Positions 20,941 to 64,000 of a DNA stretch of 64,000 nt are shown piece after piece (position 1 is the first letter of the stretch; every line of letters begins with the position of its first letter). The notes beneath the pieces were generated by a model. It was not told the origin of the DNA and did no database searches. It saw only the letters and a program-made list of their open reading frames with translations. The stretch is from assembly GCA_973895155.1 (NCBI GenBank), contig OZ316899.1, forward strand, positions 16,023,974-16,087,973, read 5' to 3'. The position numbers and the translations under genes are program-made. Source of the DNA: Marsupella aquatica. Taxonomy: Eukaryota; Plantae; Marchantiophyta.

Positions 20941-20974
20941 TCCAAGCTTGGCACAAGTTCGTGCTGGCTTTAAA

Positions 20975-30270: not shown

Positions 30271-30275
30271 CCTTG

Positions 30276-40173: not shown

Positions 40174-40185
40174 GCTCTGATACCA
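40174..40185 (-). promoter_or_regulatory. Primer-binding site (initiator tRNA-Met) of family C
   Basis: Minus strand reads TGGTATCAGAGC, 2 nt from the LTR end. Confidence 0.92.
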
Positions 40186-41589: not shown

Positions 41590-44500
41590 TGTGATGCCTA
41601 ACCAGGAATCACTAGGCCGGTTAAGTGGGAAAACGGAAGTGTACCCTAGAAATACCTTAGTATAGTTACAAGAATGAGGAAAATATAAACAATTAAGAGT
41701 GACTATGGAACCCGGACCGAGTCCGGAAGTAAGGACGCCGGGGAGAGAATACGATTAGGGTTAGGGCGCACTAAGTGTCGGCGACTAGGGGTTACCAATG
41801 ATAGGGAAGACCAGAGGAGGAGAGGGGTAAGGACAGCTCGCGAGGAATGGTGGCTCATTTGCAAGCACAAACTGGGCAGACGACTACGGGAGGCCAACTA
41901 CTGTCAACTGCTTAGACAAGCACTCTGGGCGGGAGCAGATACCAACAAACAACTCAAGGAGGGTATGAACAACGTCAATCAAGCGACACATTTTTGGGGA
42001 TGCCTGTTCAAACGGGCAACTGAGTACATTGGGACTTACGAGGACGAAGAATCAGAGAGAGCAGCTCGAGAACGGCAGGAGCTCGCTCGACTATGGGAGT
42101 TGCAAAGATCTGCCTTCTTAGGAGGAGCATTCATCAAGGCCGAGTTCTTGTGGACTCCTACTGCCAATCAGCTTGACGACCTTCTGTGTTGCGAAAACAG
42201 GATCGTCGGCATTCGGGAAGCCATCAACTGCTGCAACGACATACACTGGGAGTTGAAGGGTACCATGGAGGGGTGGACAAAGGCAACCGTGCTAGGAGAA
42301 ACATCCACGGCAGCCGAGATGAAGAGGAAAGGAAACAACAACGAAGAGGCCACCCCGGCAAAAAGAACAAGGTCGGCGGCACCAAGGAAGCCAGCAAAGT
42401 AGGGAAGCAGGAGGCAGGCGGAAGCCGAAGAGGAGGAGGTTGATCCCATCAATGCCATTCCAACAAAGGATGACACCTGGAAAGGCTGGGCGGCGACCCT
42501 ACCAGAAGAAGTGCAACTGCATTTTGCACGGGAGGAGGATGCATGCTTTACGGCCATGCAGACCAAGAAGTACCAGGGCTTCATGGCCGGATCCGGCTTG
42601 GAAGCCTTCGTAAAATTACCATGGCTGAAGCCGGAGGTGCCGGATTCAGACTTATTAGAATTCATGGGATCATGGGAGCCTGAGACCAATTCCACAAGGG
42701 TGTATGGGAAGGATTTCTATCTCACTCCCCGGGTGATTGCCAAAGTGTTTGGCTTGCCAATGGGCAATGAGACCAAAGTAGATACCAGGAAGACCTTACC
42801 AGACAAGGAGTTCCGGTCGTTTCCAGGGCCATCAACAAAGAATGGCTTCTTTCAAAATACCTGCACCAACCCACACATACGAGAAATGATTGATTTCTTG
42901 CGGGTGACCATGCATTGTAACTTGCCGAGGGCAGAGATCGGCAAGGCACGGGTCTATCTGGCAGAGAGGCCAGACCCAAGCCAAGACTACAACGGGTACC
43001 TCCTCACCCAACTAAAGAAGATCTTGAAGGAGGAACAGCAGGTGATCGGCATGGGAAGCGTGTCCCGGCTTGGCTATCACATGCCGTTGTTGTGACGGTA
43101 TGCCAGAAGTCAGATCTTTGCCCCAATACTTCCCCTGCGGGCGAGGGCACCAGAGGAAGTCCCGGAGAAGAGGCCGGCAACAGAGGAGCCCAACCAGCCC
43201 GCCAGTCCTACGATCGAGCAGATGTTTCGGCCAAGAAAATAAGACTTGCCGATGCAGCAATCAGGCATGCAGAATCTGCTGAAATTGCAGGAAAAGGAGA
43301 AGAGAACGGCACCGGCAACGGCACCGGTACAGGACACTGCCCCAGAGGTCGGCCTAAGCCGACTCAGGAGGGAAAACCCCTTTATCGGAGCCAAGGTGAG
43401 AAGGAGGCCAGAACACAAGCCGGGAGTTTGAATGTATGTGGGAGCCTCCAGCCCCAAATCGGAGGCAGAGCAGCCTAAGGCTCCTGCCCACGGAAACCAG
43501 AGGGAGAAGACAGCCTGGAAGCCAGAGGAGGAACCAGGGCCCATGATCTGTGAGGCCGTTTTTACGGCAGGACCAGGAGAATAGAGGGGGAAGCCGGGAG
43601 TCCAAGTAGTGGAGGAGGCGGTGGAGGACTACAGCAATGATAACTTTGGCTATGGGTCGGATCATCATGTTCCAGGAGTAAGAACCTATGGCCGCTTTAT
43701 CCCCACGCTTCCAAGAGTAGTTCGAGGGGATCCCACCCAATAGAGCAGCCCCGAGTCCCCCCCCACCAGATGTCGCTCCCCCGAGCTTTGATGACATAAA
43801 CCAGACGGCACAAAAGTTTCAGGAGCGACTCAAAGAGGAAGAGACGGCAGCCCTGGCTAGGGAGAAAGATTTACCAGGAGGAGATTGGCCGGAGGACATG
43901 AGGCGGCTTGCCAAAAAAAGAAGCAACCCTCTTGCCACCATAGAAGAAATCCGCAGGGCGGCTTGGGATTAGAGGCCGAGGTGGTTGATGTCGATGACTT
44001 CTACTTACTCCACCTATGCTAAAGATAGAGCCATGGAGTACGGGGAGATGTGTGGGGACCTTGCGCTCAGCATCTTTGGGGAGGAGTTGGAGCAGGGACC
44101 CTTTTTCCAGAGGGAGATATTGGAGAAGCACGAATTAGAAGAAGCGATGGCTTTGGAGAGAAGCAAGAAGGACGAGGTCATCCGGCGGCTTAGGGAGATG
44201 GAAGCCGAGGTGGAAGACCTAAAGGCGGCCAAGAAAGCCCAAGATGAGCTACGGATTAAACGGCATGAGCTAAACATCATGCAGGGGCAGCTGGATACCG
44301 CGCAGTCTGATAATCAGATTATCAAGGATAAACTGACTCAGACCCAAGGAGAGTTGGCCAAGGCGGTCAAAGATAGGGAGAAGTGGAAGCGAGAGCTGAG
44401 AGACGCAGAGGAAGCCCACATAGCAGCCAACAACCGGGCCATGACGGAGACTCAGAGAAGGGAGAGGGCGTTGAAGGGGGAACTTGAGGATATCCGCGGA

Positions 44501-46360
44501 GCCCTAGAGCAGAAGGAGGCCGAGTTAGGGAAATCCTATCAGGCGATTATCGTGCTGCGGCAGGAGCTCGCATCCATGACGGCCAGCTTCAAGGCCAACC
44601 TCCGCGAGAAAGACGACCAGCTCGACCAGACTTATGCCAAGATGAATAAAATGGAGTCTAAGGTTGTTGCGGAGCTCGACAGGGAGCTGAGAGCAACCCA
44701 GGAGGAGAGGGCTACCTTAAAGAAAGAGTTGGAGGAAGCCCATAAAGAGTTGGAGGAAGCCCCGAAAGAGTTGGAAGAAGCCCAGAAGGACCTGAAGGAG
44801 GCAAGGAAGGACCTGGATGAATTGTAGGAGGAGTTGGAGGAAAGCACGCAGAAGATGGAGAACTTACAGCGGCGGGCCGACAACGAAACGGAGCAGCTGA
44901 AAAAACAGGCCGCAGTATTTAAGTGCTTAGCTTCATCTGTTCCAACTCCAATTGTGGGAACCCCGTTACCAGGAGTGGTACTAGCATAAGGACAAGCCAA
45001 GACACACGCCCTGGTGCTGGAGGTAAGTGGCAAAGGGAAGGGACCAGCTGCCGAAACAGGGAAGAAGAAGAAGCAGAAACCTTATGGGTCTGGGAGTTAT
45101 ACAGCTCCTCCAGCCATTGTGACCAAGGAGGTAAACCCGGCACCAACCTCCAGCATGGTCACGACAATGGATCCACCTGTCAAGGAAGGTGGGGATGGCA
45201 AGGACGAGGCCGGGACAACTATTGATGAAGCCGTGGTAGCAAACCCACCGCTAGAGCGAGCCGAGGAAACCATAGCCGGGGAGGTCGTGGCCGATACTGA
45301 TGTTGAAGCCGAGGGTGGACCGAGTCAAGCCGATGAAGAGTTGACTCAGTCTGGGGCAGGTAATCTGTCAGAGGAAGGACCGACTGCAGTGGCTGCGGGG
45401 GAAGCGTTGGGGGCATCCATTGAGGATCCACCATCGGTGTTGTGATGGTGCAAGGGCGCCGTTCCTTTTAGGAAGGGCGGACATGGAGGTAGGAGGCGTG
45501 AGTGGGCAGGGCGGGCTCGGATCTCCAAGTTTAGGCTGAGGATCAGGACCAAGAGACGGCCCTCACACTTAGATTAGTGGGATTGCGGATCCACGAGTAA
45601 GGGCGACACTTGTGCTCCTGCCTCGCTGTACATAGGTAGATTACAGTTAGGTAGATTATTGATAAGTAGATTAGGCTTACGCTGCAAGGAATCAGGCGGA
45701 TCCACAACCAGGATAAGTATCTGGGCTGCGGGGAGTTCAAGGCCTCTTATTTAGCAAGTTTTTAGTTGCACCAGCAGGGTTGGGATCAAGTAGTAAGAGA
45801 AGTTCTCGGTTAGTTATACAGTGACCCTTGTGTATATTCATGTTTCCTCATGCCTAAGAACTGAATAGAGTTGGCTTCACGGCTTAGTTTGCAAAACTTG
45901 TGTATGAGATGTACTGTTTGTATGGCAAGTGCATGGTATAACTCAGTCAGAAGGAGTCATTTTACTATTTGTGCGTCGCATTAACTTGTGTGAAGAGTGC
46001 CCACATCAATGAAGGGAAGTAGCAAGGGAGTGAGAGTTGGATGTGTCGAGCTGAGAGAGGTCTTAGCGGCTTAACCAAGCCAATTGGGGATCATTCCGGC
46101 GGCGGAATCCAAACATACCTAATGGAAGACCAGGAGAGGAATACAAAGGAGGGTCTAGAATAGGCCGACTAAGTATCTCATGACCCGATGAAGGATCTGT
46201 CCAATATATGTGTGTAAAATATTAATAGTAGTAGTAGAAGGAAGTTAGCAGCGTCCCATGCCGCTAAGCCACGGAAACGGCCTCGCCGAGGACGAAACCT
46301 GCGGGAATCGGCCTGCGCAGGGGGGTTTCTTAGGTTTGGGGAGCCATGGGACGCACCACA
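41590..46360 (+). mobile_element. Family D giant solo LTR (4.77 kb), opposite orientation, inserted in the family C 5' LTR
   Basis: TGTGATGCC...GCACCACA. TSD GTCGG/GTCAG (one transition). The empty site GTCGG is visible in the 3' LTR at ~28176. Confidence 0.92.
41705..45445 (+). pseudogene. LTR-encoded accessory protein of family D, second full copy
   Basis: ATG at 41705; ORFs 41965-42402, 42511-43095, 43246-43431, 43985-44827 and 45014-45445. Confidence 0.8.
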
Positions 46361-47755
46361 GTCAGAGTCAGCGACGCCAGAGCTAAGTGTTAAGGTAGTC
46401 GAGTTCCGTGACTCCTTGGCAGGTTGCAGTGCATGGTTACCCGTAAAAAATTGATCATTTCCCCAATGTGTGGGTTGGTGTAGGTGTTTCGTAAGAAGCC
46501 ATTCTTCGTTGATGGCCCTGGGAACGACCGGAACTCATTGTCTGGCAAGGTCTTCCTGGTATCTACTTTGGTCTTATTGCCCATCGGCAAGCCAAACACT
46601 TTGGCAATCACCTGGGAAGTGAGATAGAAATCCTTCCCATACACCCTTGTGGAATTTGTCTCGGGATCCCATGATCCCACAAATTCTAATAAGTCAGAAT
46701 CCGGCACCTCCGGCTTTAGCCACGGGAATTTTACGAAGGCTTCCAAGCCGGATCCGGCCATGAAGCCCTGGTACTTCTGAGTCTGCATAGCCGTAAAGCA
46801 TGCATCCTCCTCTCGTGCAAAGTGTAATTGCACTTCCTCGGGGAGGGTCACCGCCCAGCCTCTCCAGGTGTCATCCCTTGTTGGAACGACATTGATGGGG
46901 TTGACCTCCTCTTCTTCGGCTTCTTCCTGCCTCCTGCCTCCTTGCTTGGCTGGCTTCCTTGGTGCCGCCGACCTCGTTCTCTTTGCAGGGGTGGCCTCTT
47001 TGTTGTTGTACCCTTTCCTCTTCATATTGGCTGCCATGGATATTTCTCCGAGCACGGTTGCCTTCGTCCACACCTCCGTGCTACCCTTCAGCTCCCGGTG
47101 TATTTTGTTGCAGCAGTTGATGGCTTCCCGGATGACGACAATTTTGTTCTCACAGAACAAAAGGTCGTCGAGCTAATTGGTAGTTGGAGTCCACAAGAAC
47201 TTGACCTTGATAAGCTCTCCTCCTAGGAAGGCAGACTTCTGCATCTCCCACAGTCGAGCGAGTTCCTGCCGTTCTCAAGCTGCCCTTTTTTATTCTTCGT
47301 CCTCGTAGGTCCCAATGTACTCAGTTGCCCGTTCAAACAGGCATCCCCAAAAATGAGCAGCTTGATTGACGTTGCTCATACCCTCCTTGAGTTGATAGTC
47401 GATATCTGCTCCCGCCCAGAGTGCTTGCCTAAGCAGCTAACAGTAGTTGGCTTCATGTAATTGTCTTCTTCGTTTGTGCTTGCAAATGAGCCGCCATTCC
47501 TTGTGAGCAGTCCTTACCCCCCCTCGCCTGGTCTTCCTTCCCGTTGGTTACCCCTAGCCGCCGGTACTTAGCGCGCCCTAACCCTAATCGTGTTCCCTGC
47601 CGTGGCGTCCTTACTTCCGGCCTCGGCTCGGGTTCCATGGTCACCCTTAATTGTTTATATTTTCCTTGTTTTTGTTACTATACTAATGTGTTTTCAAGGT
47701 ACACTCCTGGTTTTACTATTTTAACTGGTCTAGTGATTCCTGGCTAGGCATCACA

Positions 47756-49008
47756 GCATAAGTCTGATCGAGCATATCGTCCTTCTCCCGCAGATCGGCC
47801 TTGAAGCTGGCCGTCAGGGATGCAAGCTCCTGCTATAGCACAATAATCCCTTGATAGGATTTCCCTAACTCGGCCTCCTTTTGCTCAAGGGCTCCACGGA
47901 GATCCTCGAGCTCCCCCTTCAGCGCCCTCTCCTTCCTCTGTGTTTTCGCCATGGCCCGATTGTTGGTTGCTATGTGGGCCTTCTCTACGTCCTTCAGCTC
48001 CCGCTTCCATTTCTCCTTTTCCTTGACCGCGTCGGCCAACTCCCCTTGGGTCCGAGTCATTTTATCCTTGATAATCTGGTTATCAGACTGAGCGGTATCG
48101 AGTTGCCCCTGCATGATGTTGAGCTCCAAAGCCACCATTTCCTCCAATCGGCTTTTTTCCAACATCTCCCTCTGGAAAAAAGGTCCCTGCTCCAACTCCT
48201 CCCCAAAGATGCTGAGCACAAGTTCCCCACACATCTCCCCGTACTCCATGGCTCTGTCTTGCGCATATGTGGAATGAGTAGTAGTCATCGGCATCACCCA
48301 CCGCGGCCTTTGTTCCCAAGCCGCCTTTTGGATCTCTTCTAACGTGGGTGGAGGGCTGCTTTGTTTTTCTGCAAGCCAGCGGATGTCCTATGGCCATTCT
48401 CCCCCAGGTAAATCCTTCTCCTTGGCCAGGGACATCTGGTGGGGGAGACTTGGGGCTACTCTGCTAGTTGGGGTCCCCTCAAACTACTCTAGGAAGCGTG
48501 GGGATGAAGCGGCCACATGTCCTCACTCCTGGGACATGATGGTCCGACCCGTAGCTGGAGTCGTCATTGCCGTAGTCCTCCACCACCTCCTCCCCGACTT
48601 GGACTACCGGCTCCCACCGCTCCTCTCCTCGTCTTGCTCCAAACACGGCCTCCTGGCAAACATAGCTCACGGGTCCTGGTTCCTCCTCCGGCTTCTAGGC
48701 TGTCCTCTCCTTCTCTTCATCGCGACCCGGAGCTTTGGGCTGCTCTCCCTCGGCTTCTGGACTCGCGGCTCCCACATACATCTGAACCCCCGGCTCGTGT
48801 TTCGGCCTCCTTCTTTCCTTGGCTTTGGTAAAGGGGTTTTCCCTTGTGAGTTGGCTTAGGCCTGCCTCTTGAGCAGTGTCCTATACCGGTGCTGTCGCCG
48901 CCGCAACCTTCTTTTCCTTCTCCAACAATTTTAGAAGATTCTGCATGCCTGGTTGCTGCATCGGCAAGTTTTCCGTCCTCGGTCTAAACACTTGCTCGAT
49001 CGTAGGAT
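47756..49008 (-). mobile_element. Internal fragment of another family D LTR
   Basis: Colinear with ~31928-33330, with deletions. Coiled-coil ORF 47833-48297. Confidence 0.8.
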
Positions 49009-50759
49009 TGTGGCGCATTATCCAAGGCCTCTAACCCCAAGAACTACCCGCAACCAATCATAAACCACTCGTTTATGTTCATCCTCTTGCCATATGGCAA
49101 CTATTTGGCTTGGAAACGCAATCCTCTCCTTCGATCCACACTTGCCGGACTGATTCTTTGACTGGGCTTATGAATTGTGCACAACTAAGACACCTAATTC
49201 CTCTTTAACTTCTTCAGGTATATTTGTATTCCGCCCCCGGAATGTACCTCTACGGCTTAATTTCTTAAGTCGGCTTAAGGTCTTTTTCAGACTGACTCAA
49301 CCCACACTTCACTGACTAAACACTCTCAATCCTCACTTTTCTCTCAGAGTTTGATTGGGCAGTCTCTAATCAAGACAATACGATTGTACTTTTCTCAATA
49401 GTTCACCCTATCTGACTTAAATCGATCAAGCAACAGATATCATAACACTCAACTTCTTGGATGGCAAGAATCTGCGAACTAGGCAACGAGGCCAACTCAA
49501 TTCAAACAATTGCTTAGAAATCCAAGGGAACTGGTGGTTTACTGATACCCCGCGGTCTAGATTTAGCCGAGAGCTTCCTGTGCTCACAACAATACAGATT
49601 TTACACTAGAGCCTTGACTAAGAAAACAACCCCCCCAGCCACGCTGCCCGGGTTTTTATCCTTGCAGCGTGACTGAAAGAAGCGCGGAAATCCTACCCCT
49701 ACAATCCCTACCTGCCACCGTGATAATCCTTTTTATTTAACTAAAACAAAACTAATCTGCCTAAGCCAAAAATCCGATGGATCCGGACCTCTAACACTAA
49801 TCAAACTATTCAAGCCGTCAGAGCGCTACTTGCCCTATCCACATCCTACAACGACCGCGCCCTCCTGGCCCAAGCCCTTCTCCTTCCGCCACGTCCTCCT
49901 TCCAACTGACGATTGGCTCGCCTTAATTGTCAGATGACCGGTGGTAATCCTGAGCCGTCCGACTCTGCACCTTCCCCTGTACTCGGCTTTGGCTGACTCC
50001 CCTCGGCCACGTTCACTACGGCTTTGGGTTCAGCCTCGGCTTCATCCACATCGGCAACGGCCTGGAGAGCTTTTGCCTTAACTTCCTCAATCCAAGCCTG
50101 CTCCCCAATGCGCTCGGTCTCAATAACCTACGGCTTCACGTTCTGGGCGTCCATAGAAGCAGTACCATTGTCTGAACCTGTCACCGCAGCTCCAAGTTGA
50201 TCCGCAGTACTTACCTCTACCACAGCTGCCTTCAGGGCCACAGTACCGCAAATGTGAGCGGCCATGCTCTCGACTTCCTCCGGAGTGGCTTAAGGGGCTT
50301 AACTTTATTATCGCTCGGCCCCATGAACGTCTTTGCCAAATCTGCCACCAACTGCATGGCTTTGCCCCCAGTCACGCTTGACAACAGTGAGCTCGGCTTC
50401 GGCTTTGGCTTCACTGTATTTCCGCCTACCATACTACTGACGGGAAGCCTTTCAGTTGGTGACCCATATCTCGCTTTGGCATACTTCTTCAAATTCTCCG
50501 TTTGATTATCGGCATGCCTCTGCAACCCGATCATCTTATCCTTGGCCTCCTCCAACTCCTGAGATACGTCTTCATGTAACTTCATCGTTAAGCCATAGTA
50601 TCTCAGCCTTGGCAGTCTTCAGCTCCTCATTTAAGATCTGCACGATCTCCAACTCTTGCTTATCTACGGCTGCCTTCAAGGAGTCGTTGATGGTTTCCAG
50701 CTTCGTGACCTCCTCTTTCCATGCCTTCTTTGTCTTCTCTATATCCCCCTGAAGCTCTT
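49009..50759 (-). mobile_element. Family E LTR fragment (diverged relative of family D) with coiled-coil ORF remnant
   Basis: Starts TGTGGCGC and shares blocks with D (TCTGCGAACTA...GAGGCCAACTC, CCTTGCAGCGT). ORF 50232-50585 has RHADNQTENLKK, versus family D RRADNQTERLKK. Confidence 0.7.
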
Positions 50760-52685
50760 TGTGTAGAGTAGGGTTTAGAGTAAGAATAACTATTCTTCTC
50801 TTTAATAGCCTAGATTCGTTCCCGTTAAGAGCTATTGAGACCTAAAAGATTGTAATATGATACTTTGAGTACTTTTGAGTAACATACTCAGGTTACAAGC
50901 CTTTTTAACATGCTCAGGTTTATGGAAGGAATTTTATGATACTTCCATGAAAGGTATGACGTTTGTATCGTCCATAGTGCAATCAAAAAGGGGTAAAAAG
51001 TGTTAAACAAAACCAAAAGCAAGCGGCGTGAAAACTGATAGAAGGCGAGTTATAGATGGAAATATACCCTATCACTACATAGCAACTCATGGCCAGCGGT
51101 AGTACATTAAGAATCATTGGGATAAGTGCTCATGTAAAACTGATGCCTACATATCTTCTTCAAACCAGCCATCTTAGAAAATTATAAAAGATTAGCATAA
51201 GGTAGCCCGTATTGATTTTCTGACCTATGTCAAAGCAAGGTGGTACTAATCACTCCGAACCAACTTATTCTTTTATTCAATCCATCAGATTGTTCTTTTG
51301 GATCTATGCAATTTGTGGAATTCTAGTGGTGAATTTGTATCAGCTCCCTATTGAATATAAGAGCTCTATAGTCAACACGAATCAATAGGCTTTTGCATGA
51401 TCTCATGCATGCGTTTCCAGTCAGCCTACGGGTCAACCAAGCATTACTAGTCACATCAAACAGCTTTTTCTAGTAAGGGATAATCACACACTAAGATTGA
51501 ATCACAAACCATAGATTACCAAAGATTACTAAAATAAACTTCTCATTGATTAATTACTTCAAAGAGAAGGAGACTTAAAGTTGAAAGCTAATTTCATGAA
51601 AGTTATATTAAGTCTGAGGTTCAAGGAAGAATCTCTCCCTTATATATAAGAGAGATCCGCTTGAAAAACTACATGAAAAGACATGCCCTTTCATTATGTA
51701 AAAACTAATAAGGTTAACTAGATAAAAATAACTATACTGTGTGAAAGAGGAGGTCATATCACTTCCTTCCTTCCCTACAAAACATGGAAAATGGTCGGAA
51801 CAAAGGCGGAAATCAAATTTCCGGTTCAACCTCCTTTTGAATATAAATTCCGGTTGAACCTGTTTTTACAGAATCCGGTTCATCCGTCTTGGTGTTTAAC
51901 TATGGCTTTAGGAATTTCTGGCTCTTCAGGAATCTCTGGAGTGATATTGGGAGTAGGTGCTTGACTTTGGAGGGGTTCTATAACATAGGTTACTCCTGTG
52001 GAGGTAGTAACAATGTTGCCAGGGGGAACCGGGTTGGTAGGATACTTGCTCATGAGGGAAGACCATTCGAAAGGTCCGGGAGTGGTGGTAGGAATGGTCC
52101 CTGAGGAAGAGGTGAAATCAGGAGCAGTAGTATCAAGAGTGGTAGGTTCTCCTGATAGAGGGGATGGAGAATACTGAACTGGTGTCTCCCCATCATCCTT
52201 AGCCCAGATCTGGTGTAACTCATTCATTTGGCCCAAAATCTCCTTCATTGCATTCAGGCAGTCCTCAAGTTTATCTCCATAGTCTTGAGAGATACGAATG
52301 ACAGTAGCAAGGCAAGTAGGATTAGGTACTTTTACAAAGTACTCTCGAAAGAGTTCTGTCTGGACCAAATCTCTACCTCTGGTGTTCAGGAAAGGGTCCA
52401 AACGATCCACTAAATCTTCCAGACTCTCAATGGCTTCTTCCTCCTTCTTACTCCTCTGTCTTCTCTCCTTCAACTGGTTTTCACAATCTGTGAGTCTAAC
52501 AGACTTCTCCTTGAGGTCCTTTTCCATTCTCTCCACCTTCTCCTTGTTGCCAGCAGTCTGTATTACATACTCAAAGTTTGCTACTAATTCTGAGACTGGA
52601 ACACCTGCTACTCGAGCCATCTTGGCCAGGTTTTGTTCCATGATACCCATCTTCACTTGTATTGCCTCCATCTCTTGCTGGATGA
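50760..52685 (-). mobile_element. Putative LTR or TE fragment (family F), host of the family G insertion
   Basis: Abrupt switch to AT-rich sequence starting TGTGTAG at 50760. Contains ORF 51880-52671, cut at the family G LTR. Confidence 0.4.
51880..52685 (-). CDS. C-terminal part of an unknown coiled-coil and Pro/Thr-rich TE-associated protein, truncated by insertion
   Basis: Open for more than 263 codons up to the LTR G junction. Heptad-like E/K region followed by a P/T-rich tail. Confidence 0.5.
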
Positions 52686-55600
52686 TGTGACGCCGCCGGT
52701 ACGGCGGTTAATGAGTGATTTGGTCTAACTGCGCTCAGCACGCGCATTAGGAGTGTCTTAGGCCGCTATTATTAGCATAACGACAGTATTTAGGTAATCA
52801 TTATGGGTAGGACATCATTAGGCAATAAGGGGGAATTCAGGTTCGGACTGGCGACGGGTCGCTATTTGCACACCCGGGTTACGAGCGTGGAGGGGCCCCT
52901 CCCTCGGGTCCGTATAACAAACTTAAGGAAGCGGCCACTGACACGCGCTGACTCAGACCGGCGGAGTGGCCGGTACACCACAAGCGTGAGCGGTTCAGCC
53001 TATGGGCGTCGAGGAGATGTCGGGGGATCGGCAAGCCCTCAAGGTATAAAAAGGGAGCCGACCCTTTGGAGTGCACCAGTCCATCAGTCCACGCGCCAGC
53101 TTCGACCCCAGCTCTCTCGTTCGCTCTAAGTCGCCACTACTATCTCCTCTGAATGTTGCACACGATCCTCTCCAGCTCGGCCATTCGATTATGGATGCAG
53201 TTCCTATCTACCGGAAGGCACTTGGCCGACTCATTGAAACACGCCAACCCACCCCGATACGAAATCAAACGCGAGTACGAGAGAGCCATCCGCCTAGCAG
53301 GACGACACCACTACATCCTTAACTTTGACTACCCGTCTCAGAGCGAGCTTTACCGACCAGCAGAGGTATCTGGGTACTTCTTCAACGGAGACAAATATAT
53401 CGGTTTCTGGGAAGCATTGCTTCGGCTTCCAGACGAGGTCTTCAATATCCCGGGTACGATCGACTTGCAACGACATCACTTCGACCACATCCCTGCTCAG
53501 GTTCGGGCTATCATCAACAGCGAGTCCACCACTACCCGTTGGACAAGGTCGTCCGCACTTGCTTCGGAGAACTTCTACCAGCACCTGCAGAGCTTCATGG
53601 GAACTAGACCCGCAACCACCGGCGCCAGCCCAGTGGACACCATACCCGTACCCGTACCAACGCAGACTCAGGCTCAGGCTCAGCTTCAGGCTCAGCTTCA
53701 GTCTCAGCCTCAGCCTAGCCAACCCCCACCGCCGATCGCCCCGCCAGCAGTACAAGTACGCTCCGTCATCAACGCTGTGGACCTTAGCGACGACGACGAG
53801 GCTACCCCACCCTTGCTCAAGCGGCCCAGAGGAGTAAACACTCAGGGGGCCGACACTGCATCGTCCCCTCCCCATGCTCGGACCCAAGGAGTGGCTCCAG
53901 CAGACAACACGGTGACCGTGGCCGCCCCGGGACCAATACTAACGGCGGTAGTACTACCTATGCCCGATCGAGAGGATGTGGAGGTGTCACCTTCCCCGAG
54001 CCAGTCACGGGGGAAGAAGAGGAAGGAACCCGCCACTGCATCCAGGTTACCATTGGCCATGGTAGCCGTGGCCAAGGTAACAATGCACCGCATGGGGGAA
54101 AACGTGCATAAGAACATCCTCCATCCCAAGCATGCGGTGTACCTGAAGACTCAGGGATTCGAGCACCTCGCCGCTCTGCCCTGGAACACTTGCAGGTACT
54201 ACGGGAGGACATGACAGAATTCGTCAAGAATTATGATGATACACGTCAGCATACTCGGCTACAGGGAAGGAATATGTCCCTCACGGAAGAACGGCTCAGG
54301 ATGATCTTCGGATTACCTGAAGGTGACCATCGAGTCGAATCACGGGCTCCCGGGGGCAAGGGAGCCAAGTACCAATCCTCAAGTTTTCCCTCGAAAGGAG
54401 CAGTGGACAACGGGTTTGTGATGAGGACCTGCCTCATCCCCGAGATAGCTGAGCGACTGGAGTTCCAAAGGTACGCCCTCCACATGATGGAACCCCGGGG
54501 GGAGATCTCCGCCACCCAGGTTATCCAGGTCGAGAACTATCGACCTAGGAAGTGGGCGTCGTACTTCGCTAAGAAATTCCATGAAGAGATGGAGCGGCGA
54601 AGGAAGACGCTGTACATTGGCGGGAAGGCGTATTTTGCTAGCCACATCCAGATCATTCTTGAGTGGTACGCTCGGTTTGATCGACGAACCCTTCCCTGTG
54701 TCAACGTTACAAAGCTGGTCCCAGCTAGGTGGGTTTTTCCGGCCTTGGAGAGATGGCCCCAACCCGAGGCCCCAAGTCCAGCGGACACGCCAGCTTCACC
54801 CACCCCACCTCCACAAGTAGCTGTAGTCGTAACCGAGGAGGTACCGGATGGGTCGGTTGTCGCAACCATTGATGCGATCCAACAGGCCGGGCTAAGTACA
54901 GAAGTCGGTACGGCGGAGGTCTTACCCGAGCCCGGGTCTCCCAAAGACCCACCGGTGGCTATTCCGGAGAACCGGACATTGCTGTAGGAGGACACTCCAG
55001 CCCCTTCCAACATTACGTCCCCAGGGCTGGACGTCACTGCCCCGGCCCCCGCGCGTGTTGACGTCTGCCCGTGCCCAACTCCGGACAGGCACAACCTGGA
55101 CCACCCGGAACTCTTCGTACCGGGTATATTTCTGAACGGGCTTCTGGGAGATTTCTCTCATCAAATTGCCCGGGATACCGGGGAGTTCATGGCCCGGAAG
55201 GTAGCCTGTTTCTTCAATCAGGAGTTAGTTGCCGCAGTAAAGGTAGGTCGGGCCCAGTCAGAGGCCCTTCAGAGGATAGAGCGGTACCGGGTGGAGTCCG
55301 TCTACTTAAAGAATGAAGTTGCGGCTCAAGAGGCTGAGCTTCTGCAACTACGACCCAAGGTTGCAGCCGCCGATGATTTGTTAGCAAAGGCGCACGCCCT
55401 TACCGCCCTAGCCGAGCAGGCCAAAGCTGGGAACGAGGCCGAGATTGCATGACTCTGGAACCAGATTGACAGTTTGAAGAATCAAACTATCATCTGGCAG
55501 AAGGACCTGGAGGAGGCCGAAGAACGGGCCCAGCGGGACACTGCGGAGATAGCCACGCTGCAGGCCGAGGTGATGAGGCTCCAAACCAAGGCCGAGAAGC

Positions 55601-56705
55601 AGGACCAGCTGGCGGGTAAACTGACGAGCGACGCCCAGCAGCTGGAGGAGGCATGTCAGGAGGCAGCAGAGGAGACGGACGCGGCGAGGCGAGAGAACGA
55701 ATCTCTGCTGGACCAGGTCCAGCTCCTCAAGGCGGACAATGACAGGCTTCGAAGGTAGCGGGATGGCCGCTCCCATTCGGGCGGCTCTGGCAAGCGTGCC
55801 AGGTATTAGCAGCGGAGCAGGAATAGATTAGGATTAGGACTAGCTTAGTCAGGGTCTTGGGACAGGCACCTGCCTTAGGTACAACAGCGCTGCCATGCTG
55901 TCCAGCCTGCGTAGATTAGGATCTTCTAATAAGACACAGCCGTTTTCCGGCCTGACTGTCAGCTTAGTTAGGACCTTAGTCAGCGAATCTTCGGCGAGAG
56001 GACACCCCGTCCCTCGGCCCTTAGTATTTAGTGCACCCCTCGGTAGAGGCAGGGGGGGTTTTTAGTCTCAGAGTTGGACATCCGTGGTATGTGCTGGGAG
56101 TCCCGGCCTCTAGGAGTGAAAGAGTACCAAGGGGAGGGGGTAGGACTAAGCTCGTCGGGCGAGTGCGGAGCCGGGCTCCGTTGTAGTATACTCTCTTGGC
56201 CTTGAACCTGTTCATTCTGGAGCTATCGGGTCAACCAAGTGTACGCACATGTCCCCTATGTAGTAAAATCCTTTCCCATTATTTCCTTCGTGTAAATCAA
56301 GATTGTATGCTTGTGCGCGTGTATATGTGTGTGAATCTCGTGTATAGGTGACAACGCCGGGCCGAACGCACTACCCGAATCGTGCACGAGGTGCAGCTTG
56401 CGGGGATGTGGTTGCGAGCACGGGTTGAGGACATGTATCATGGAATCCGGATTGAAGGCGGACAACACGAAGGCTTAGAAGTCCTTAAGCCGGGGTCGAT
56501 CCTATTATCGACTAAGGTACGTTCCGGCGGTGGAACACGAACCATATCTAGGAGATGTCTGTATCTAACAGTAGGTGCACTTAGCGCTACTTTACATGAA
56601 TTAGGTGCATTACACGCTTCCCTCCCTGCCCGAACCCTCAAATTTACGAGGGATGTGCCCGTCTAAGCTGAAGTCTGAGTTAAGGCTGAAGCCGACGACG
56701 TGACA
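52686..56705 (+). repeat. Family G 5' LTR
   Basis: The first ~1.2 kb is repeated at 62808-64000. The right boundary is inferred from the CA end, the PBS position and similarity to the family A end. Confidence 0.82.
53153..55758 (+). pseudogene. LTR-encoded accessory protein of family G (about 850 aa)
   Basis: ORF 53153-54214, one frameshift, then same-frame ORFs 54190-54987, 55189-55452 and 55474-55758 separated by single stops. TATAAAA at 53045 upstream. Confidence 0.8.
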
Positions 56706-57044
56706 TAGCCTTTGTTTTGGCGCTAGATGGAGGGGGCACTCTACATATCGTAGAGGGGAGACATGTGCGTATTCACCTAGGCAGGATACATCAGGACGTA
56801 GTACTAACCATCGCATTTATATGAGTAAATTCCCGTCACTCGTTCTCAAGCAGCTTACTTGAGGAGATTGACCAGCGAACGAGAAAGTGCAACCACGACA
56901 AGTTCCGATTCTTCGGGCTCGGAGGACTCGCAATCGCCCCGATGTATGAACATACCCCTTGGACCTTCGGGGTCCGGTTCGACCGGTCCTGCTGCGGTTC
57001 CTCCGCCACCACCACCACCACCGCCACCTCCACCACCACCACCT

Positions 57045-58790
57045 ATGGCAGCCGCCCAACCGATGGCCCGCGCTGCTCAAGCTCCTCCACAAATATCGCA
57101 ACGATCGCGATTTCATTATTGACCTTTCAAGGGGTGTCATGGGGATGATCCGGATGAATGGTTGGATGAGTTTGAAGCCACTGCTAAAGCTAATGGGGAA
57201 GACGCCATTAAGCTAACCGTCCTCCCGGGAGTGATGCGGGGAGAAGCTCGTCCATGGTACAACTCGTTGCCACCCGGGACTACATGGGCACAATTCCAAG
57301 CTGCATTGCTGCAGGAGTTTCGTGCCATTGGATCAGAACAGCGTTCTCTATTAAAGATTGGCCAGCTTTGCATGGGAAAGAAGGAGTCCCTGCAGAAGTT
57401 CATTCAGAAGTTTCAGAAACTTGCGGCCAAGATCCGGCCCAGGCCGGGAGACGCGCTCTAGCTTACATGGTTCCTTCATGGTTTGCCCACGAATATGCAA
57501 TTCTGGGTATGCCAGAATAATCCAATTTCAATGCAGGCGGCCATAGCGTGCGCCGAAACTTACCGGGAGTCCACCTATAACTCCCGGCGGAGCCAGCAAG
57601 CACGCCGCAAGAAGGGTAAGTACAAGACCTTCAGTGACAGTGACTCCGAATCGGACGACGAGAGGAAGAAGAAAAGCAAGAAGAAGAAGAAACATCGCTC
57701 GACCTCGTCCAGCTCGGAGACGAAATCCAGTTTGGATTCAGCTTCAAGCATCGGATCCTCTACCTCCAGTTCATCAGGAAGTGACTCGGAGAGCGAAAGC
57801 CGGAGCAAAAAGAAGAAGAGACGAGTGAAGAAGGAGGGGAAGATCAAACCCCGGGCGCGAAGAATGATACCAGATCCAAAGGCTGCCGAAGCAGACAAGC
57901 TGAACGAAATCACGGATCGACTCAAAGCACTGTCAGTACATCTTGTGGAAAGGCCGGTGGAGAAGAAGAAGCCATCTGAGATTTGAGCCCATGCGTGGTG
58001 TTCAAAGTGCTTCCAATCCGGCCATGTGGTGCAGGAATGCCCAAGGTGGACGAACCGAGTTCACCAAGTAGAGCTGGATGATGTTGACAACCCGGGTCCC
58101 GAATCGGAGTCCACGGAGTATTTCTTTGAGGACCCTCTTGATTCCGTGTACCAGATTTCAACGGTAGGTCTGCGTAATTTAGCGGGTAGAACTGCGTACC
58201 CCTACCCAAACAATGGCCGGAGTTTCCAGGTTATCAGTAACCCGAGCATCCCTCCTAAGCCAGGGATTTGGCGATCCCCGGTTTGTTATAACTGTGAAAA
58301 GCCAGGACACTTTGCGAGGGAATGCACCGAACCAAGACGCCAGGGGGATGGCCGTGGCACGCCACTTTGTCAAGTCTGCAAAACGGAAGCTCATTCCATG
58401 ACCAACTGTCCATTGGTCATGGCCGCTCGAACAAATGCAGCAAGACCAGCCCAGGGCGGACCGACCACGAGTGATCTGGTCGTCCAAATGATTGCGGTGG
58501 AATGGCAGGATGACAATACCGAGTGGGTGAATCTGGTGGACGTGGCGGAACACCCTAATCCATCTGACAAGGCTGAGTGCTATCGTGTGTCAACAAGAGC
58601 TGAACGGAAGGAAGAGAAGCAGGAGGAGAAACGCAGGAAAAAGCAAGATACTACTCCGGTGCAGCCAGCGATAGATATACCCCCGAAGAAGGACGATGAC
58701 TACCGACGGGACAACCCGAAGCTATTTTTCCCCCGCATCGAAGAATTGGTAAAGAAACAGCTGGAGGCCTACGAAGCTCGGGAATACTAG
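57045..58790 (+). pseudogene. Family G gag with a Ser/Lys-rich tract and three CCHC knuckles
   Basis: FKGCHGDDPDEWLDEFE...GEARPWY; CSKCFQSGHVVQEC, CYNCEKPGHFAREC, CQVCKTEAHSMTNC. Confidence 0.85.
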
Positions 58791-58922
58791 AAGGCAATCG
58801 ATAAGGACATCAAAGCAGCCGAGACAGCCCGGCGACAGGAGCAAGAAAAGCAAGATAAGCAAGAGGAAGCCAAGCAGCAGCCGAAGGAAGAAAAGAAGGA
58901 GGACTATGATATTAAGGAGGAC

Positions 58923-61900
58923 GTGAAGAGTTGCCCGGTTATAGCAACAGTAGGACAACTGCTGCAAAACAATCCACAGTACAGACGGCAACTGAGGGAG
59001 TTGCTTACGGGTCGACGACGGAGACGACTACCCCGAGTTGGGACTGCGGATTGCAACATGATATGCGAGGACCTGGGAGCGCCGGACATCTCGATTGAAA
59101 TTAATAATTGTACCATCAAGATGGTTCTCGTAGACGGAGGAGCGGGAGTCAACATCATGACGGAAGAGACGTCAGTCAAGTTAGGATACCTCACGTATCA
59201 ACCCACAGCCCGAGCTATCAGATTAGCAAACGGGGCAAGGGTACTTCCATTGGGCACGCTTACACGGGTACTCACTCTGGTAGGAGGGGTGGAGTTCTAT
59301 CTCAACTTCCTAGTCATGAGGCCGGTTTGGCCCTCCTCTTATCCGGTCCTCCTAGGCAGGCCGTGGCTGTACGGTGGCCGTGTGGTCACGGATTGGGGAA
59401 AGAAGGAGCTACGGTTCGGGACACCCACCGTACGGGTATCATGGGCAATGGACGATTATCAGGGAGAAACCCCACAAGGACCCGAGGAATATGATTCGGA
59501 GACCTTGGAGGAAGAGGAACTCAATATGATTGAACTCATCTCGTCCCTGTCCGAGGAAGATGTCTTTGAAGTTGAAGCAACCCGCGAAACACATCTCCTA
59601 AATTACCCGAGGGCTGCCATTGAGTCCACCCCAAGCACATCTACTGCCGAGGATGAGGAAACGCACGAACAACTCGTCGAGACGGAGGACAAGGCTCCAA
59701 CTAAGCAGGGAGCCGAGGCTGCTTCTACCATCGCAGAGCCTCGTGACCACGAACCTGCCCAACAACCGCCCGAGGCCGAAAACTCGAGACCGAGACATAA
59801 GAAACGAGTCTCATGGGATCCGTCCATTCCGCAATTGGAGGAAGTAACTCCAATCCCAAGACCAATCCCGGTTCCACCCATGTACGGAGGAGTTCGGTTA
59901 GCTGAGCTTGATGCGAGCCTGGACCCGAGCTTGCGAAACTAGGTTGAAGTCATCAGGAAGGAGCACTACCGGAAGTACACCATTGGGATGGACAAATCTT
60001 TTAACTTGGGCCACGCTCTGACAGGGGAGGCTGAAAAATCCATCCAAGCTTTGCTCAAGGAATATGAAGATGTGTTTGCATGGAGCCATCACGATTTAAC
60101 AGGAGTCTCCCCCGAGTTAGGAGAACACACGATCGATTTGAATCTGGGGGCCCATGCAGTACGGTGCGACAACGTCGCATGAACCCAAGGTACTCCAGCT
60201 TAGTGAAGGAGGAAATTGATCGTCTCCTCGCCGCAGATATCATCTACCCGGTAATGGCCAACGACTGGGTCTCTCCCATCGTCATTGTACCGAAAAAAGG
60301 AGGAACGGACGGAAAACCTAAGATCCGGATTTGTCAGGACTATCGTAAGCTGAACGACGCAACCCGAAAAGACCATTACCCGTTACCATTCACGGATATG
60401 GTTCTAGATATGGTAGCCCGAAATGAAATTTATACATTCCTTGACGGGTATTCGGGTTATAACCAAATCTGGATTCGCCTCTTGGATCAACTCAAAACAA
60501 CGTTCACTACGGAATGGGGGACTTTCGCATTTCAGAGAATGCCGTTCGGATTGTGTAACGCTCTGGCCATGTTTCAGCGACTCATGATGAATATCTTCCA
60601 TGACTTCCTACGGGAATTTTTGGAGATATTTATCGACGACTTCGCATCTTTGGAACTGTCGCCATGCACCCCGAACACCTAAGACGTACGTTCCAACGAT
60701 GCCGAGAGGTTAACCTCAAACTACATCCCGCTAAATGTTTTTTTGGGGTAGAGGAGGGAGTATTACTCGGGCATCGTGTGTCCAAACGGGGTATCGAGGT
60801 GGACCAAGAGAAGGTCGCGGCCTGGATGGCGGTGGTGTTTCCCGTAGATCAAAAAGCGGTACGATCCTTCTTGGGCTGTGTACGGTATTACCGTCGGTTT
60901 ATTAAAGACTTTGCTAAAATAGCGCTGCCCTTGACTGAGATGATGAAAAAGGATGCGGTGATCGAGGAGACACCCAAGAGACGGATTGCTTTCGAAGAAC
61001 TCCGTAAAAGACTCACCACCGCACCTATCATGGTCACTCCGGACTGGAATAAGGAGTTCCACATGTATGTCGATGTGTCAGGGTTCTGTATGGGATCCGT
61101 GCTCAGTCAGCTTGATGAGAACGGAGGCGACCACCCCATCTACTTTGCTAGCCATCAATTATTCACAGCCAAAAAGAATTATTCCCCCACTGATCGAGAA
61201 GCTCTGGGAATAATCTACTCATGTAAAAAGTTCCGACACTATCTGCTAGGCTACAAGGTCATATTCCACACGGATCATGATAGCCTGAAGTACATGGTCA
61301 ACAAAGCGGACGTGACGGGACGGATAGCCCGGTGGGTGCTACTTCTCCAGGAATTTAACTACAAAGTTTGGGTTTGGCCCGGAAAGGCACACCTCAATGC
61401 CGACTTCTTTTCAAGGCTGGACGGCGTACCAGTCGATCAGCCAATTGATGATATTTTTCCGGTTGAGGAGTTGTTCCACGTAGGGGCGGGGACGCCAACG
61501 TGGTACGGCTCAATTATCACCTTCCACTTGACAGGCCGCATCCCTGACGGCATCAATCAGGAAGCCGCCGCTGTGTTTCTACGGAAATCCGGGCCTTACG
61601 TCATGGTACAGGGTCACCTACATAAGGAAGGAGTTAATGGGAAGTTATGACGCTGCTTGGAGTATAAGGAGACGCTGATCGTGATGCACGACTTGCATGA
61701 AGAAGAAGCTGGAGGCCATTTCGCGGCTATCACAACAGCCCAAAAGATTCTGGACTCCGGATATTGGTGGCCTACGTTGCATCGGGATGTACAACGCTTC
61801 ATCAAGGGCTGTGACCTGTATCAGCGGGTTGGGGCCCCGAGACGAGCTCATCATCACCCTCTCACGTCCGTACTTCCATTAGCACCGTTCGAAAAGTGGG

Positions 61901-62800
61901 GTATTGATTATATCAGGCCATTTACTCTCGTTACCCGAAGATGAAGATGCAGGTACATCCTGCTAGCTATTGATTACTCCACCAAATGGGTCGAAGCACG
62001 GGCTACGGTGAAGGACGACGCCGCAACCAGCGCCAGGTTCTTATATGAACAGATTTTCACCCGGTTCGGCCCACCCTTAGAATTGGTAAGCGACCGTGGA
62101 ACCCACTTCCTCAATGACACTGTAGCCCAGTTTACGGAGCGTTACCTAGTCAAGCACCGCAAGACTACCCTGTATCATCCTAAGGCCAACGGGATGACAG
62201 AGAGAGCCAATGGTATCATTGGGAAAATCCTCAACAAGACGGCAGCGGCGCACAAAACGGATTGGGATGATAAGTTGTACGCAGCGGTGTACTTGTATAA
62301 TCTCGCTTACAAAACTACTACGAGTCACAGCCGTACTTTCTCGTGTTTGGCCAACATTCGTTGGTACCCGTCGAGTTTGAAGTACACACTCCACGAGTCA
62401 GTATTCACGATCGCTTACCCGAACCTGAAAGTTCGTCAGACCGAGCTTATCAAATTGAAGCCCTAGAAGAAGCACGGCTACTAGCAGCTGGACACGCCGT
62501 GAAGAATCAGGCAACTTCGAAGAAGCAACACGACAAAGGACTACGGAGGGTCGACGTCGTGGTAGGCGATCTAGTCCTTCTGTACGATAGTAGGTACATG
62601 CAGTTTCCAGGGAAGCTTCATACCCGGTGGTTAGGGCCCTTCCTTGTCAATCAGATCTACCATAACGGATCTTTGGAGCTTGCGACGTATGCCGGCGATT
62701 TACTCCCCACGCGAATCAGCTACGATCGTGTAAAAAAGTACCACCATCAAGATGACGACGCCGAGAGTGATGTTTGCGAGGACGCTTCACAATTAAGCAG
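58923..62800 (+). pseudogene. Family G pol (protease, RT, RNase H, integrase; no chromodomain)
   Basis: VLVDGGAG, WVSPIVIVPKK, CQDYRKLN, FLDGYSGYNQ, FIDDF, YVDVS, TDHDSL, HEEEAGGHF, WGIDY, VSDRG, GMTERAN, WLGPF. Confidence 0.95.
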
Positions 62801-62807
62801 GGAGCTA

Positions 62808-64000
62808 TGTGACGCCGCCGGTACGGCGGTTAATGAGTGATTCGGTCTAACTGCGCTCAGCACGCGCGTTAGGAGTGTCTTAGGCCGCTATTATTAGCAT
62901 AACGACAGTATTTAGGTAATCATTATGGGTAGGACATCATTAGGCAATAAGGGGGAATTCAGGTTCGGACTGGCGACGGGTCGCTATTCGCACACCCGGG
63001 TTACAAGCGTGGAGGGGCCCCTCCCTCGGGTCCGTATAATGAACTTAAGGAAGCGGCCACTGACACGCGCTGACTCAGACCGGCGGAGTGGCCGGTACAC
63101 CACAAGCGTGAGCGGTTCAGCCTATGGGCGTCGAGGAGATGTCGGGGGATCGGCAAGCCCTCAAGGTATAAAAAGGGAGCCGACCCTTTGGAGTGCACCA
63201 GTCCATCAGTCCACGCGCCAGCTTCGACCCCAGCTCTCTCGTTCGCTCTAAGTTGCCACTACTATCTCCTCTGAATGTCGCACACGATCCTCTCCAGCTC
63301 GGCCATTCGATTCTGGACGCAGTTCCTATCTACCGGAAGGCACTTGGCCGACTCATTGAAACACGCCAACCCGCCCCGATACGAAATCAAACGCGAGTAT
63401 GAGAGAGCCATCCGCCTAGCAGGATGACACCACTACATCCTTAACTTTGACTACCCGTCTCAAAGCGAGCTTTACCGACCAGCAGAGGTATCTGGGTACT
63501 TCTTCAACGGAGACAAATATATCGGTTTCTGGGAAGCATTGCTTCGGCTTCCGGATGAGGTCTTCAATATCCCGGGTACGATCGACTTGCAACGACATCA
63601 CTTCGACCACATCCCTGCTCAGGTTCGGGCTATCATCAACAGCGAGTCCACCACTACCCGTTCGACAAGATCGTCCGCACTTGCTTCGAAGAACTTCTAC
63701 CAGCACCTGCAGAGCTTCATGGGAACTAGACCCGCAACCACCGACGCCAGCCCAGTGGACCCCATACCCGTACCCGTACCAACGCAGACTCAGGCTCAGG
63801 CTTAGCTTCAGTCTCAGCCTCAGCCTAGCCAACCCCCACCGCCGATCGCCCCGCCAGCAGTACAAGTACGCTCCGTCATCAACGTTGTGGACCTTAGCGA
63901 CGACGACGAGGCTACCCCACCCTTGCTCAGGCGGCCCAGAGGAGTAAACACTCAGGGGGCCGACACTGCATCGTCCCCTCCCCATGCTCGGACCCAAGGA
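62808..64000 (+). repeat. Family G 3' LTR (partial), including the start of the second copy of the LTR-encoded ORF
   Basis: Near-identical to 52686-53890, with one 12-bp indel in the CAGGCT/CAGCTT repeat. Confidence 0.95.

Follow-up and report, generated by a model that had tools for sequence, protein, structure and literature searches.

A Gene with a Predicted VANC-like Core inside the Giant LTRs of a Marsupella aquatica Gypsy Element and in Two Further LTR-like Families

In a 64,000-nt stretch of Marsupella aquatica DNA (the window, whose positions serve as coordinates throughout), units of 3.8-4.8 kb from three divergent families, here called G, A and D, hold a gene for a protein with a conserved core. 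We consider it on balance probable that these units are LTRs (as seen directly for G and inferred for A and D) containing a gene under selection, that this gene likely entered them through priming from an upstream polypurine tract (PPT), and that its core is a VANC-like DNA-binding domain with a likely role in anti-silencing. The evidence comes from the structure of the elements, the similarity of the cores, the position of the PPT in related loci and the modeled fold of a homolog.

The LTR gene of element G

Element G is a Ty3/Gypsy LTR retrotransposon, as its domain order, PBS-like site and PPT establish. Its features are as follows.

52681..52685 (+): expected left TSD, from the sequence; the right copy is outside the window
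52686..56705 (+): 5′ LTR, 4,020 bp, TG...CA; the repeat starts at 52686 and 62808, with a PBS-like site 12 bp beyond the CA
53045..53051 (+): TATA-like box, 108 bp before the ORF ATG, the sole TATA match in the G LTR
53153..55758 (+): LTR gene, ~870 codons, broken by a frame change near 54200 and by stop codons at positions 54985 and 55450
54110..54690 (+): conserved core, Transposase_32/VANC-like by homology (profile and model comparison via the related locus L012)
55498..55695 (+): predicted coiled coil (crude heptad scan; weak Pfam coiled-coil match just upstream)
56718..56735 (+): PBS-like site, starting with TGG, 12 bp after the LTR CA
57000..62840 (+): gag-pol in the Gypsy order PR-RT-RH-IN (Pfam), broken, start approximate
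62766..62807 (+): conserved box ahead of the LTR that contains a polypurine tract, abutting the pol end, shared with loci L006, L010, L012 and L013
62808..64000 (+): first 1,193 bp of the 3′ LTR by repeat alignment, cut at the window end; carries the TATA box and ORF start

The 5′ unit is unbroken from TG to CA and is followed by the PBS-like site, in agreement with the LTR of 4.0 kb described in the earlier note, and a contig of run X3 matches the left flank up to 52685 and then diverges from the window. The PBS-like site differs from that of L010, which we take to be of the tRNA-Asp type, and is not the tRNA-Asp PBS of the Athila clade. Pfam places zf-CCHC, protease, RT, RNase H and integrase domains between the direct repeats, and the pol frame stays open to 62838, its tail reading through the PPT. 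The 3′ LTR begins directly after pol and is 97% identical to the 5′ LTR over 1,206 columns (K2P distance 0.020 over the part of the 3′ LTR inside the window); the start of the ORF lies within this second repeat, as the earlier note had it. The TATA-like box is also present in both copies and, judged from its sequence and position, is likely the promoter of the LTR gene itself; the same pattern finds no TATA box in the A or D LTR units. The dN/dS between the two G LTRs, 0.39 [0.15-1.12] from 13 differences, is uninformative. Summed contig depth is several-fold greater over the G LTR gene than over gag, a figure that is not a copy number.

Units of families A and D, the shared core and selection

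The corresponding features of A and D in the window are the following.

9919..13748 (−): family A unit resembling an LTR, 3,830 bp, without TSD, its two sides bordering on different elements
10955..13024 (−): A LTR gene, single frame with scattered stops, start not fixed; core 11890-12472
24077..26732 (−): D3 3′ piece, with internal deletions
30276..34963 (−): D2 solo LTR, 4,688 bp, perfect 5-bp TSD CCTTG/CCTTG, holding a broken gene
41590..46360 (+): D1 solo LTR, 4,771 bp, TSD GTCGG/GTCAG (one mismatch), inside an LTR of element E
41689..45445 (+): D1 LTR gene, open frame from 41689, start not fixed, broken; core 42553-43092
45458..45481 (+): weak candidate for a relic PPT-like box, immediately 3′ of the D gene stop (L008 and L010 seeds)
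46414..47756 (−): 5′ part of D3, which an inserted element E has split
47757..49010 (−): a fourth piece of D, from the coiled-coil region

D1 and D2 have the TG...CA ends and 5-bp TSDs previously ascribed to two D LTRs and carry no internal region, as solo LTRs do, and contigs of X1, X2 and X4 show both D ends joined to other sequences. The A unit has the expected 3.8 kb and lacks the TSD of a solo LTR (flanks CTAGT/GTCCA), with neither PBS nor PPT alongside it within the window. No gag-pol is attached to A or D in the window, so Gypsy status is established for G only, through its gag-pol and repeats, and the description of all three as Gypsy families stands to that extent; among the loose ends listed (24 of 24 + 956) there is likewise none for D. 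The ORF stops 947 bp (G), 1,036 bp (A) and 915 bp (D1) before the LTR end, close to the ~0.9-1.0 kb given earlier. One large ORF per LTR had been claimed, and the gene does lie inside the LTR units, but its frame is intact in none of the window copies: D1 shifts frame and contains at least seven stops, and A has at least five stops. Similarly, the D solo LTRs carry the gene, as the proposal that solo LTRs leave a complete gene behind would have it, but every copy here is broken.

The cores of the three families are clearly alike, with 65 of 158 residues identical between A and G (z 58), 46 of 175 between A and D1 (z 29) and 39 of 146 between G and D1 (z 27); in 1,000 shuffles no score came near the real ones, and the three motif examples of the earlier note are found in the translations. 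There is no DNA-level match between the G, A and D families (best E 0.02). A likeness confined to the coiled coil, which that note had set as a refutation, is not what we find: the core is significant, whereas the coil of D is not significantly like that of the other families (the score is attained in 18 and 53 of 500 shuffles), and the N-termini of D show no likeness to A or G. Purifying selection has acted on the D gene, as had been supposed from the motifs, with dN/dS in the core of 0.14-0.19: between D1 and D2 it is 0.15 [0.09-0.26] in the core and 0.20 [0.13-0.32] in the coil, and between D1 and D3 the core gives 0.14 and 0.19, against control values of 1.0-1.9 for the two shifted frames in the core and 0.5-0.8 for the 3′ non-coding part. 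In the N- and C-terminal parts of D1-D2 selection is not clear (0.78 and 0.86). None of the eight ORF segments has a transmembrane segment (top 19-residue hydropathy 0.78-1.44), and the protein in this respect is not env-like.

Related loci, the polypurine tract and the predicted fold

Among 46 RT-related loci found in metagenomes, nine share 63-76% RT identity with G; three of these nine extend more than 2 kb beyond pol, and all three have a long sense ORF there. In an RT tree built without named reference elements, G groups with L013, L011 and the L010 clade at 91/91. A profile of the window cores, run against six frames of 51 loci, finds L012 (E 8e-8), L013 (E 0.007) and L010 (E 0.04), the others lying at 0.67 or above, and hhalign of the window family gives L012 at 94.8% (E 5e-8) and, as a weak link, L013 at 34% (E 4e-4). 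The LTR ends of L013 do not lie within its contig. In the relatives the homologs are internal, 3′ of pol, and the idea of a protein family special to LTRs has to be given up; the protein is not a new family and, from sequence comparison, appears to be a relative, moved to a new place, of the extra ORF that Athila-like elements carry at the 3′ side of their internal region.

The pre-LTR box precedes the TG in L006, L010, L012 and L013 (scores 40-58; shuffle maxima 30-32). It lies 3′ of the homologous ORF in L010 and L012 and 5′ of the gene in G and L013, and no such box is found inside the G, A and D LTRs. L010, whose LTR is 989 bp, has a second PPT-like box directly after pol; Athila has two PPTs. 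At the possible relic box of D the score is reached by 3, 0 and 5 of 200 shuffles (D1, D2 and D3) with the L008 seed and by 5, 23 and 24 of 200 with the L010 seed, and the L012 seed has no match at that site; 3′ of the gene in G and A there is no relic PPT.

A core-based locus search found nothing in viral or metagenome contigs, and an RT search yielded nothing of use from viral or prokaryote-genome contigs. Five loci in viral contigs match the PBS pattern; both of those inspected (two of the five) are unrelated. A word-indexed protein search yielded no match among 234 candidates with A residues 1-194 and none among 7,237 longer proteins; among 4,095 proteins of near length there is a single match, the unnamed protein P0005 (E 4e-33).

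The window cores have no direct Pfam family match. The L012 core matches PF20167 (Transposase_32) at 24 bits (E 3.5e-5, positions 8-169 of 177), below the cut-off of 45 bits, and on this profile match L012 is a distant relative of Transposase_32 and not a member. The AlphaFold model of the L012 core, from an alignment that included the window cores, has pLDDT 71 and pTM 0.73. In a Foldseek search of the PDB with this model, VANC21-DNA is the top match (prob 0.94, TM 0.53, E 0.054), the next having prob 0.02, and VIA-align of the same model against 48,161 chains gives VANC21 at Z 7.8, just below the tool's distinctive level (rmsd 4.5, 185 aligned), followed by Z 2.4. The model with A first in the alignment has pLDDT 43 and its Foldseek search is uninformative; BFVD has no match at E ≤ 0.001, and two sequence searches of the PDB gave no match and two chance matches, respectively. 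Atlas scores of 0.85-0.90, which are leads only, point from the A and D cores to DUF1985 and plant mobile domain (PMD) clusters, the nearest named cluster of the D core being PMD (0.90; PF10536 on 20% of members). VANC targets are repeated short motifs. Exact 9-mers are not enriched in G, A and D2 (the count is attained in 31-60 of 60 null runs), D1 (4 of 60) or L010; they are enriched in L006, L012 and L013 (0 of 60). The available text of one study places DUF1985 in VANC proteins (PMC5735166). On the one modeled fold of the homolog L012, not of a window protein, the core is predicted to be a VANC-like DNA-binding domain, although sharing a fold does not demonstrate function. The earlier hunch of a plant mobile domain or plant transposon protein holds through the PF20167 match of L012 and the Atlas leads, and the guess of anti-silencing gains a fold match, the function itself being a prediction.

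Proposed origin and role of the LTR gene

Among the known systems closest to the LTR gene is the 3′ sense extra ORF of Athila-type elements (eORF-3′F, env-like), with which it shares sense orientation, a place after pol, a PF20167-like core (via L012), coiled parts and a non-chromovirus-type pol. It differs in lying downstream of the PPT, inside LTR units (both LTRs in G) and in solo LTRs, and in lacking the membrane segment of an env-like ORF. In the available text of PMC11728184, PMC6317226 and PMC7264820, ORF(+) of sunflower Athila 14 contains PF20167 and is predicted to be nuclear, and extra ORFs are placed in the internal region only; the supplements could list LTR-borne ones. With VANC21 of VANDAL21 (PDB 9LNJ/9LNK) the common ground is the predicted core fold (Z 7.8 over 185 residues), a DUF1985-like character by Atlas lead and, from partial accounts, a TE-encoded accessory protein with a conserved core and variable flanks (PMC5735166, PMC8756742). 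VANC21, however, belongs to a DNA transposon rather than an LTR retrotransposon, shows 10-12% identity to the core with no sequence match, and binds DNA, which for the window proteins is only predicted, G, A and D being without target-motif arrays. PMD (PF10536) of Ogre and MAIN/MAIL1 shares with the D core an Atlas cluster lead, whereas the window cores have no Pfam PMD match; PMD is described as angiosperm-only in the available text of PMC6317226 and PMC8616336, which reports none inside LTRs. The layout is also that of MMTV sag. This ORF of a mammalian retroviral LTR lies wholly in U3, twice per element and also in solo LTRs; its protein and function are unrelated.

The same location could serve another role, the gene being a selected accessory factor (for integration targeting, nuclear import or as a particle chaperone) with a PMD/VANC-like fold and no anti-silencing activity. 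The missing target-motif arrays and the long coiled coil would fit such a factor, the functions of plant extra ORFs are called unknown (PMC7264820), and that of PMD is so described in part of PMC8616336. We nevertheless regard it as rather unlikely, since the sole solved relative found, VANC21, is a DNA-bound anti-silencing protein and TE-encoded PMD proteins are proposed as counter-silencing factors in the available text of that same paper (PMC8616336).

Two further readings concern the LTRs themselves. Since the G LTR has no other TATA match, the box at 53045 could be the single promoter of the element. This would put the gene in R/U5, where it would come first on the genomic RNA, as a 5′ extra ORF does, with gag expressed through splicing or internal initiation. 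Such an arrangement appears improbable, given that homologs lie 3′ of pol in relatives, that TGTA/TGTG-rich stretches of the poly(A)-region type are concentrated in the final 0.4-0.8 kb of G and D1 (not A), and that a minus-strand strong-stop DNA of 3.6 kb would presumably be needed. It is more improbable still that A and D are separate non-autonomous units or mis-bounded remnants and not LTRs of autonomous Gypsy elements, leaving an LTR gene in G only, and there perhaps partly: gag-pol, PBS and PPT are indeed absent beside A and D in the window, the loose ends listed offer no gag-pol for D, and the end of the G 3′ LTR is beyond the window, but D has TG...CA, 5-bp TSDs and a gene-to-end spacing like that of G, its ends join other sequences elsewhere, and the G 5′ unit is continuous up to its PBS.

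In the origin that we favor, with the gene in U3, second-strand priming would have moved to a PPT upstream of a 3′ accessory gene. Because all RNA downstream of the PPT becomes U3, such a shift would copy the gene into both LTRs while leaving the genomic RNA unchanged, and the last 0.9-1.0 kb of the giant LTR would correspond to an ancestral short LTR, such as the 989 bp of L010. The direction of the shift, from internal to LTR, is not rooted. The gene may use its own TATA promoter and the LTR poly(A) site, so that a young solo LTR could supply the protein in trans. The core is predicted to bind DNA sequence-specifically and the coiled coil to mediate oligomerisation or partner binding, with the predicted outcome that LTRs of the same family locally lose silencing marks.

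More broadly, and only as a doubtful extension, LTR retrotransposons of this plant lineage may have sequence-specific anti-silencing proteins of the VANC type, homologous to the Athila env-like/Transposase_32 ORF, with the gene repeatedly moved into U3 by a PPT switch. Solo-LTR formation, by which the host usually deletes elements, would then leave self-contained helper genes able to reactivate the family in trans. What the env-like 3′ ORF of plant Gypsy elements does is an old question, to which the chain from LTR genes through Transposase_32 to VANC21-DNA offers a testable answer: DNA-binding counter-silencing, not envelope. The position of the PPT would provide a one-step route to multi-kilobase LTRs and to an LTR-borne gene, and solo LTRs, generally regarded as inert scars, may instead be coding units overlooked by annotation pipelines.

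Gene-bearing LTRs and their surroundings in the window

The gene inside the LTR is a real feature, and for two of the three repeat families considered here, G and D, we regard this location as very probable. The units and sites concerned are as follows.

Features of the G, D and A units
52685-53890 and 62807-64000: two copies of the G repeat, 97% identical in the window self-comparison
52686 (TG) to 56705 (CA): G 5' LTR
12 bases past the CA of the 5' LTR: G PBS-like site, starting with TGG
108 bases upstream of the gene's ATG: G TATA box
30276-34963 (minus) and 41590-46360 (plus; D1): D units with TG...CA ends and 5-bp TSDs
9919-13748 (minus): A unit with TG...CA ends

Between the G LTRs, Pfam identifies gag, protease, RT, RNase H and integrase in Gypsy order. 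The 3' LTR, of which the window covers the first 1,193 bases, starts immediately past the purine-rich box that closes pol, and K2P 0.020 separates the two LTR copies. The integrase frame (62301-62840) crosses the polypurine tract (PPT) and enters the 3' LTR by 30 bases, so that an extra ORF could not fit into the internal region. D is further represented by a copy split by element E, another Gypsy, and by one fragment. The proposal of gene-bearing LTRs in three Gypsy families stands for G, with its gag-pol, and in part for D, which has LTR-like termini and TSDs but no gag-pol attached within the 64-kb window; A likewise lacks gag-pol there, and no TSD was found at its flanks.

What is unusual is the location of the gene within the LTR. 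Among retroviruses, MMTV sag is an LTR ORF. Our search, over mainly open-access literature, found no description of LTR-borne ORFs in plant retrotransposons; two sources assign extra ORFs to the internal region, and they describe non-chromovirus LTRs reaching about 5 kb (PMC7264820; PMC6317226).

The surrounding sequence is dense in other elements.

Other elements in the window
1-4815 (plus): CACTA-type transposon with Transposase_21, DUF4218 and DUF4216; SET-domain ORF at 1-681 (E 4e-8)
4816-9900: second CACTA-like region with intron-like pieces
13749-21400 (plus): broken Gypsy; C5 cytosine methyltransferase (PF00145) at 17012-17230 (E 1e-5), between protease and RT; PHD finger (PF00628) at 20974-21102 (E 3e-9), after integrase
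21564-23574: third LTR of element E and tail fragment
23511-24098 (plus): non-LTR element fragment, zf-RVT, E 3e-11
26736-46413 (minus): element E, with 1.5-kb LTRs
49011-52685 (minus): repeat hosting the G insertion, with a 275-codon frame and coiled-coil-like pieces

Element E sits inside the split D copy and contains two D solo LTRs. Its PBS is presumably of the tRNA-Met type, its tail appears chromodomain-like by eye, and its RNase H-integrase portion seems partly missing. Its protease region is broken by about 2.3 kb of foreign sequence (35100-38000), within which 37111-37428 is 72% alike to 5152-5448 of the CACTA-like region in self-comparison. A Pfam search of the repeat hosting G gave no match at E < 0.03. 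The methyltransferase-bearing Gypsy resembles KnitGypsy-Dnmt3 (PMC5890265); the main text of that paper contains no mention of 'PHD'. The element types present (CACTA, and a Gypsy with a methyltransferase) and the taxa of the Atlas protein clusters suggest that the host is a streptophyte, probably a non-seed plant.

Conservation of and selection on the LTR gene

Each G, A and D unit holds a long sense frame whose stop lies 915-1,036 bases short of the LTR end, matching the 0.9-1.0 kb of the earlier note. The frames are broken in every window copy; the break in G looks copy-specific, because many public-run contigs carry differing sequence there. A TATA box in G and TGTA/TGTG-rich sequence close to the LTR end in G and D1 suggest that the gene may be a self-contained transcription unit.

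The conserved domain (core) is shared by all three families, as had been proposed, despite divergent DNA: against 1,000 shuffles, A and G are identical at 65/158 positions (z 58), A and D1 at 46/175 (z 29) and G and D1 at 39/146 (z 27), while no DNA-level similarity was found among the families. The cores are, on these alignments, homologous. Beyond the core, A and G retain a weak likeness (z 4-6), and none was found between D and either. Pairwise codon analysis of the D copies puts dN/dS for the core at 0.14-0.19, for the coil at 0.20-0.26 and for the linker at 0.23-0.40, compared with 1.0-1.9 for the core in shifted frames and 0.5-0.8 for the non-coding end; the termini give no clear signal. 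These values bear out the suggested purifying selection and show that the gene was under selection during the family's active period.

Relatives of G and the position of the PPT

Direct searches with the LTR-gene protein returned one homolog, and relatives were gathered with the G RT as query, giving 46 metagenome loci, nine of them 63-76% identical to it. Three of these nine extend well beyond pol, and all three hold a long intact sense ORF there. A profile of the window family run against 51 loci scored L012 at E 8e-8, L013 at 0.007 and L010 at 0.04, and hhalign gave 94.8% for L012 and 34% for L013.

The box ahead of the G 3' LTR, used as a seed, has one match each in L006, L010, L012 and L013, every time followed by TG, and none within the G, A or D LTRs. 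Its place differs between elements: directly after pol and ahead of the ORF in G and L013, behind the ORF in L010 and L012. L010, which was assembled as a circle, has an LTR of 989 bp; from the stop of its ORF to the LTR end there are 1,114 bases, a distance similar to that of the window units. L010 and L008 carry a second PPT-like box immediately past pol, to which sequence just after the D gene stop shows a weak match in three copies. Athila has two PPTs.

By the established course of reverse transcription, any genomic-RNA sequence 3' of the primed PPT ends up as U3, present at each end of the element. An element laid out as pol, box, accessory gene, box and 1-kb LTR would, if primed at the upstream box, acquire a 4-kb LTR bearing the accessory gene. 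Such a shift of the PPT is, from this comparison, the probable origin of the gene-bearing LTR, its direction being unrooted. In the RT tree, the L010 clade, L011 and L013 are the elements that group with G (91/91), L012 being next. In the core tree, L010 and L013 pair as sisters (100/99), separate from L012 and the window cores, and long branches are flagged (L049 and L051 were excluded for short cover). If the L013 ORF sits in its LTR, gene position changed more than once.

Predicted fold and role of the protein

The resemblance to plant-mobile-domain (PMD) or 'putative plant transposon' proteins noted earlier is borne out through the homolog L012 and through cluster leads. Pfam matched no family to the window cores, but the L012 core covers nearly the whole Transposase_32 model (PF20167; E 3.5e-5, below the cut-off), and Atlas protein clusters give DUF1985 and PMD leads in Streptophyta (0.85-0.90). 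A sunflower Athila element is reported to carry PF20167 in its 3' extra ORF (PMC11728184).

Modelled on a 9-row alignment with five rows from the window (pLDDT 71), the L012 core has as its best Foldseek match in the PDB the anti-silencing protein VANC21 on target DNA (prob 0.94, TM 0.53, E 0.054); VIA-align agrees (Z 7.8 and rmsd 4.5 over 185 residues, the runner-up having Z 2.4). PMC5735166 describes VANC21 as a sequence-specific, transposon-encoded protein with DUF1985 and DUF287, whose short targets are arranged as tandem repeats. G, A and D differ in having no enriched exact 9-mer, which counts against a strict VANC parallel, whereas L006, L012 and L013 do have one. Short motifs also recur over entire elements, coding parts included, in L006 (737-5593; nine exact copies), L010 (621-6803; degenerate copies) and L012 (seven exact copies), and are possible binding sites for the accessory protein.

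No membrane segment was found in the ORF segments scanned, which is evidence against an envelope role. An anti-silencing function, predicted from the fold only, is plausible, at slightly less than even odds; a non-exhaustive search found no literature link between Transposase_32 and VANC. Because it connects a so far unexplained ORF of plant retrotransposons with the fold of VANC21, this comparison opens a long-standing question to testing.
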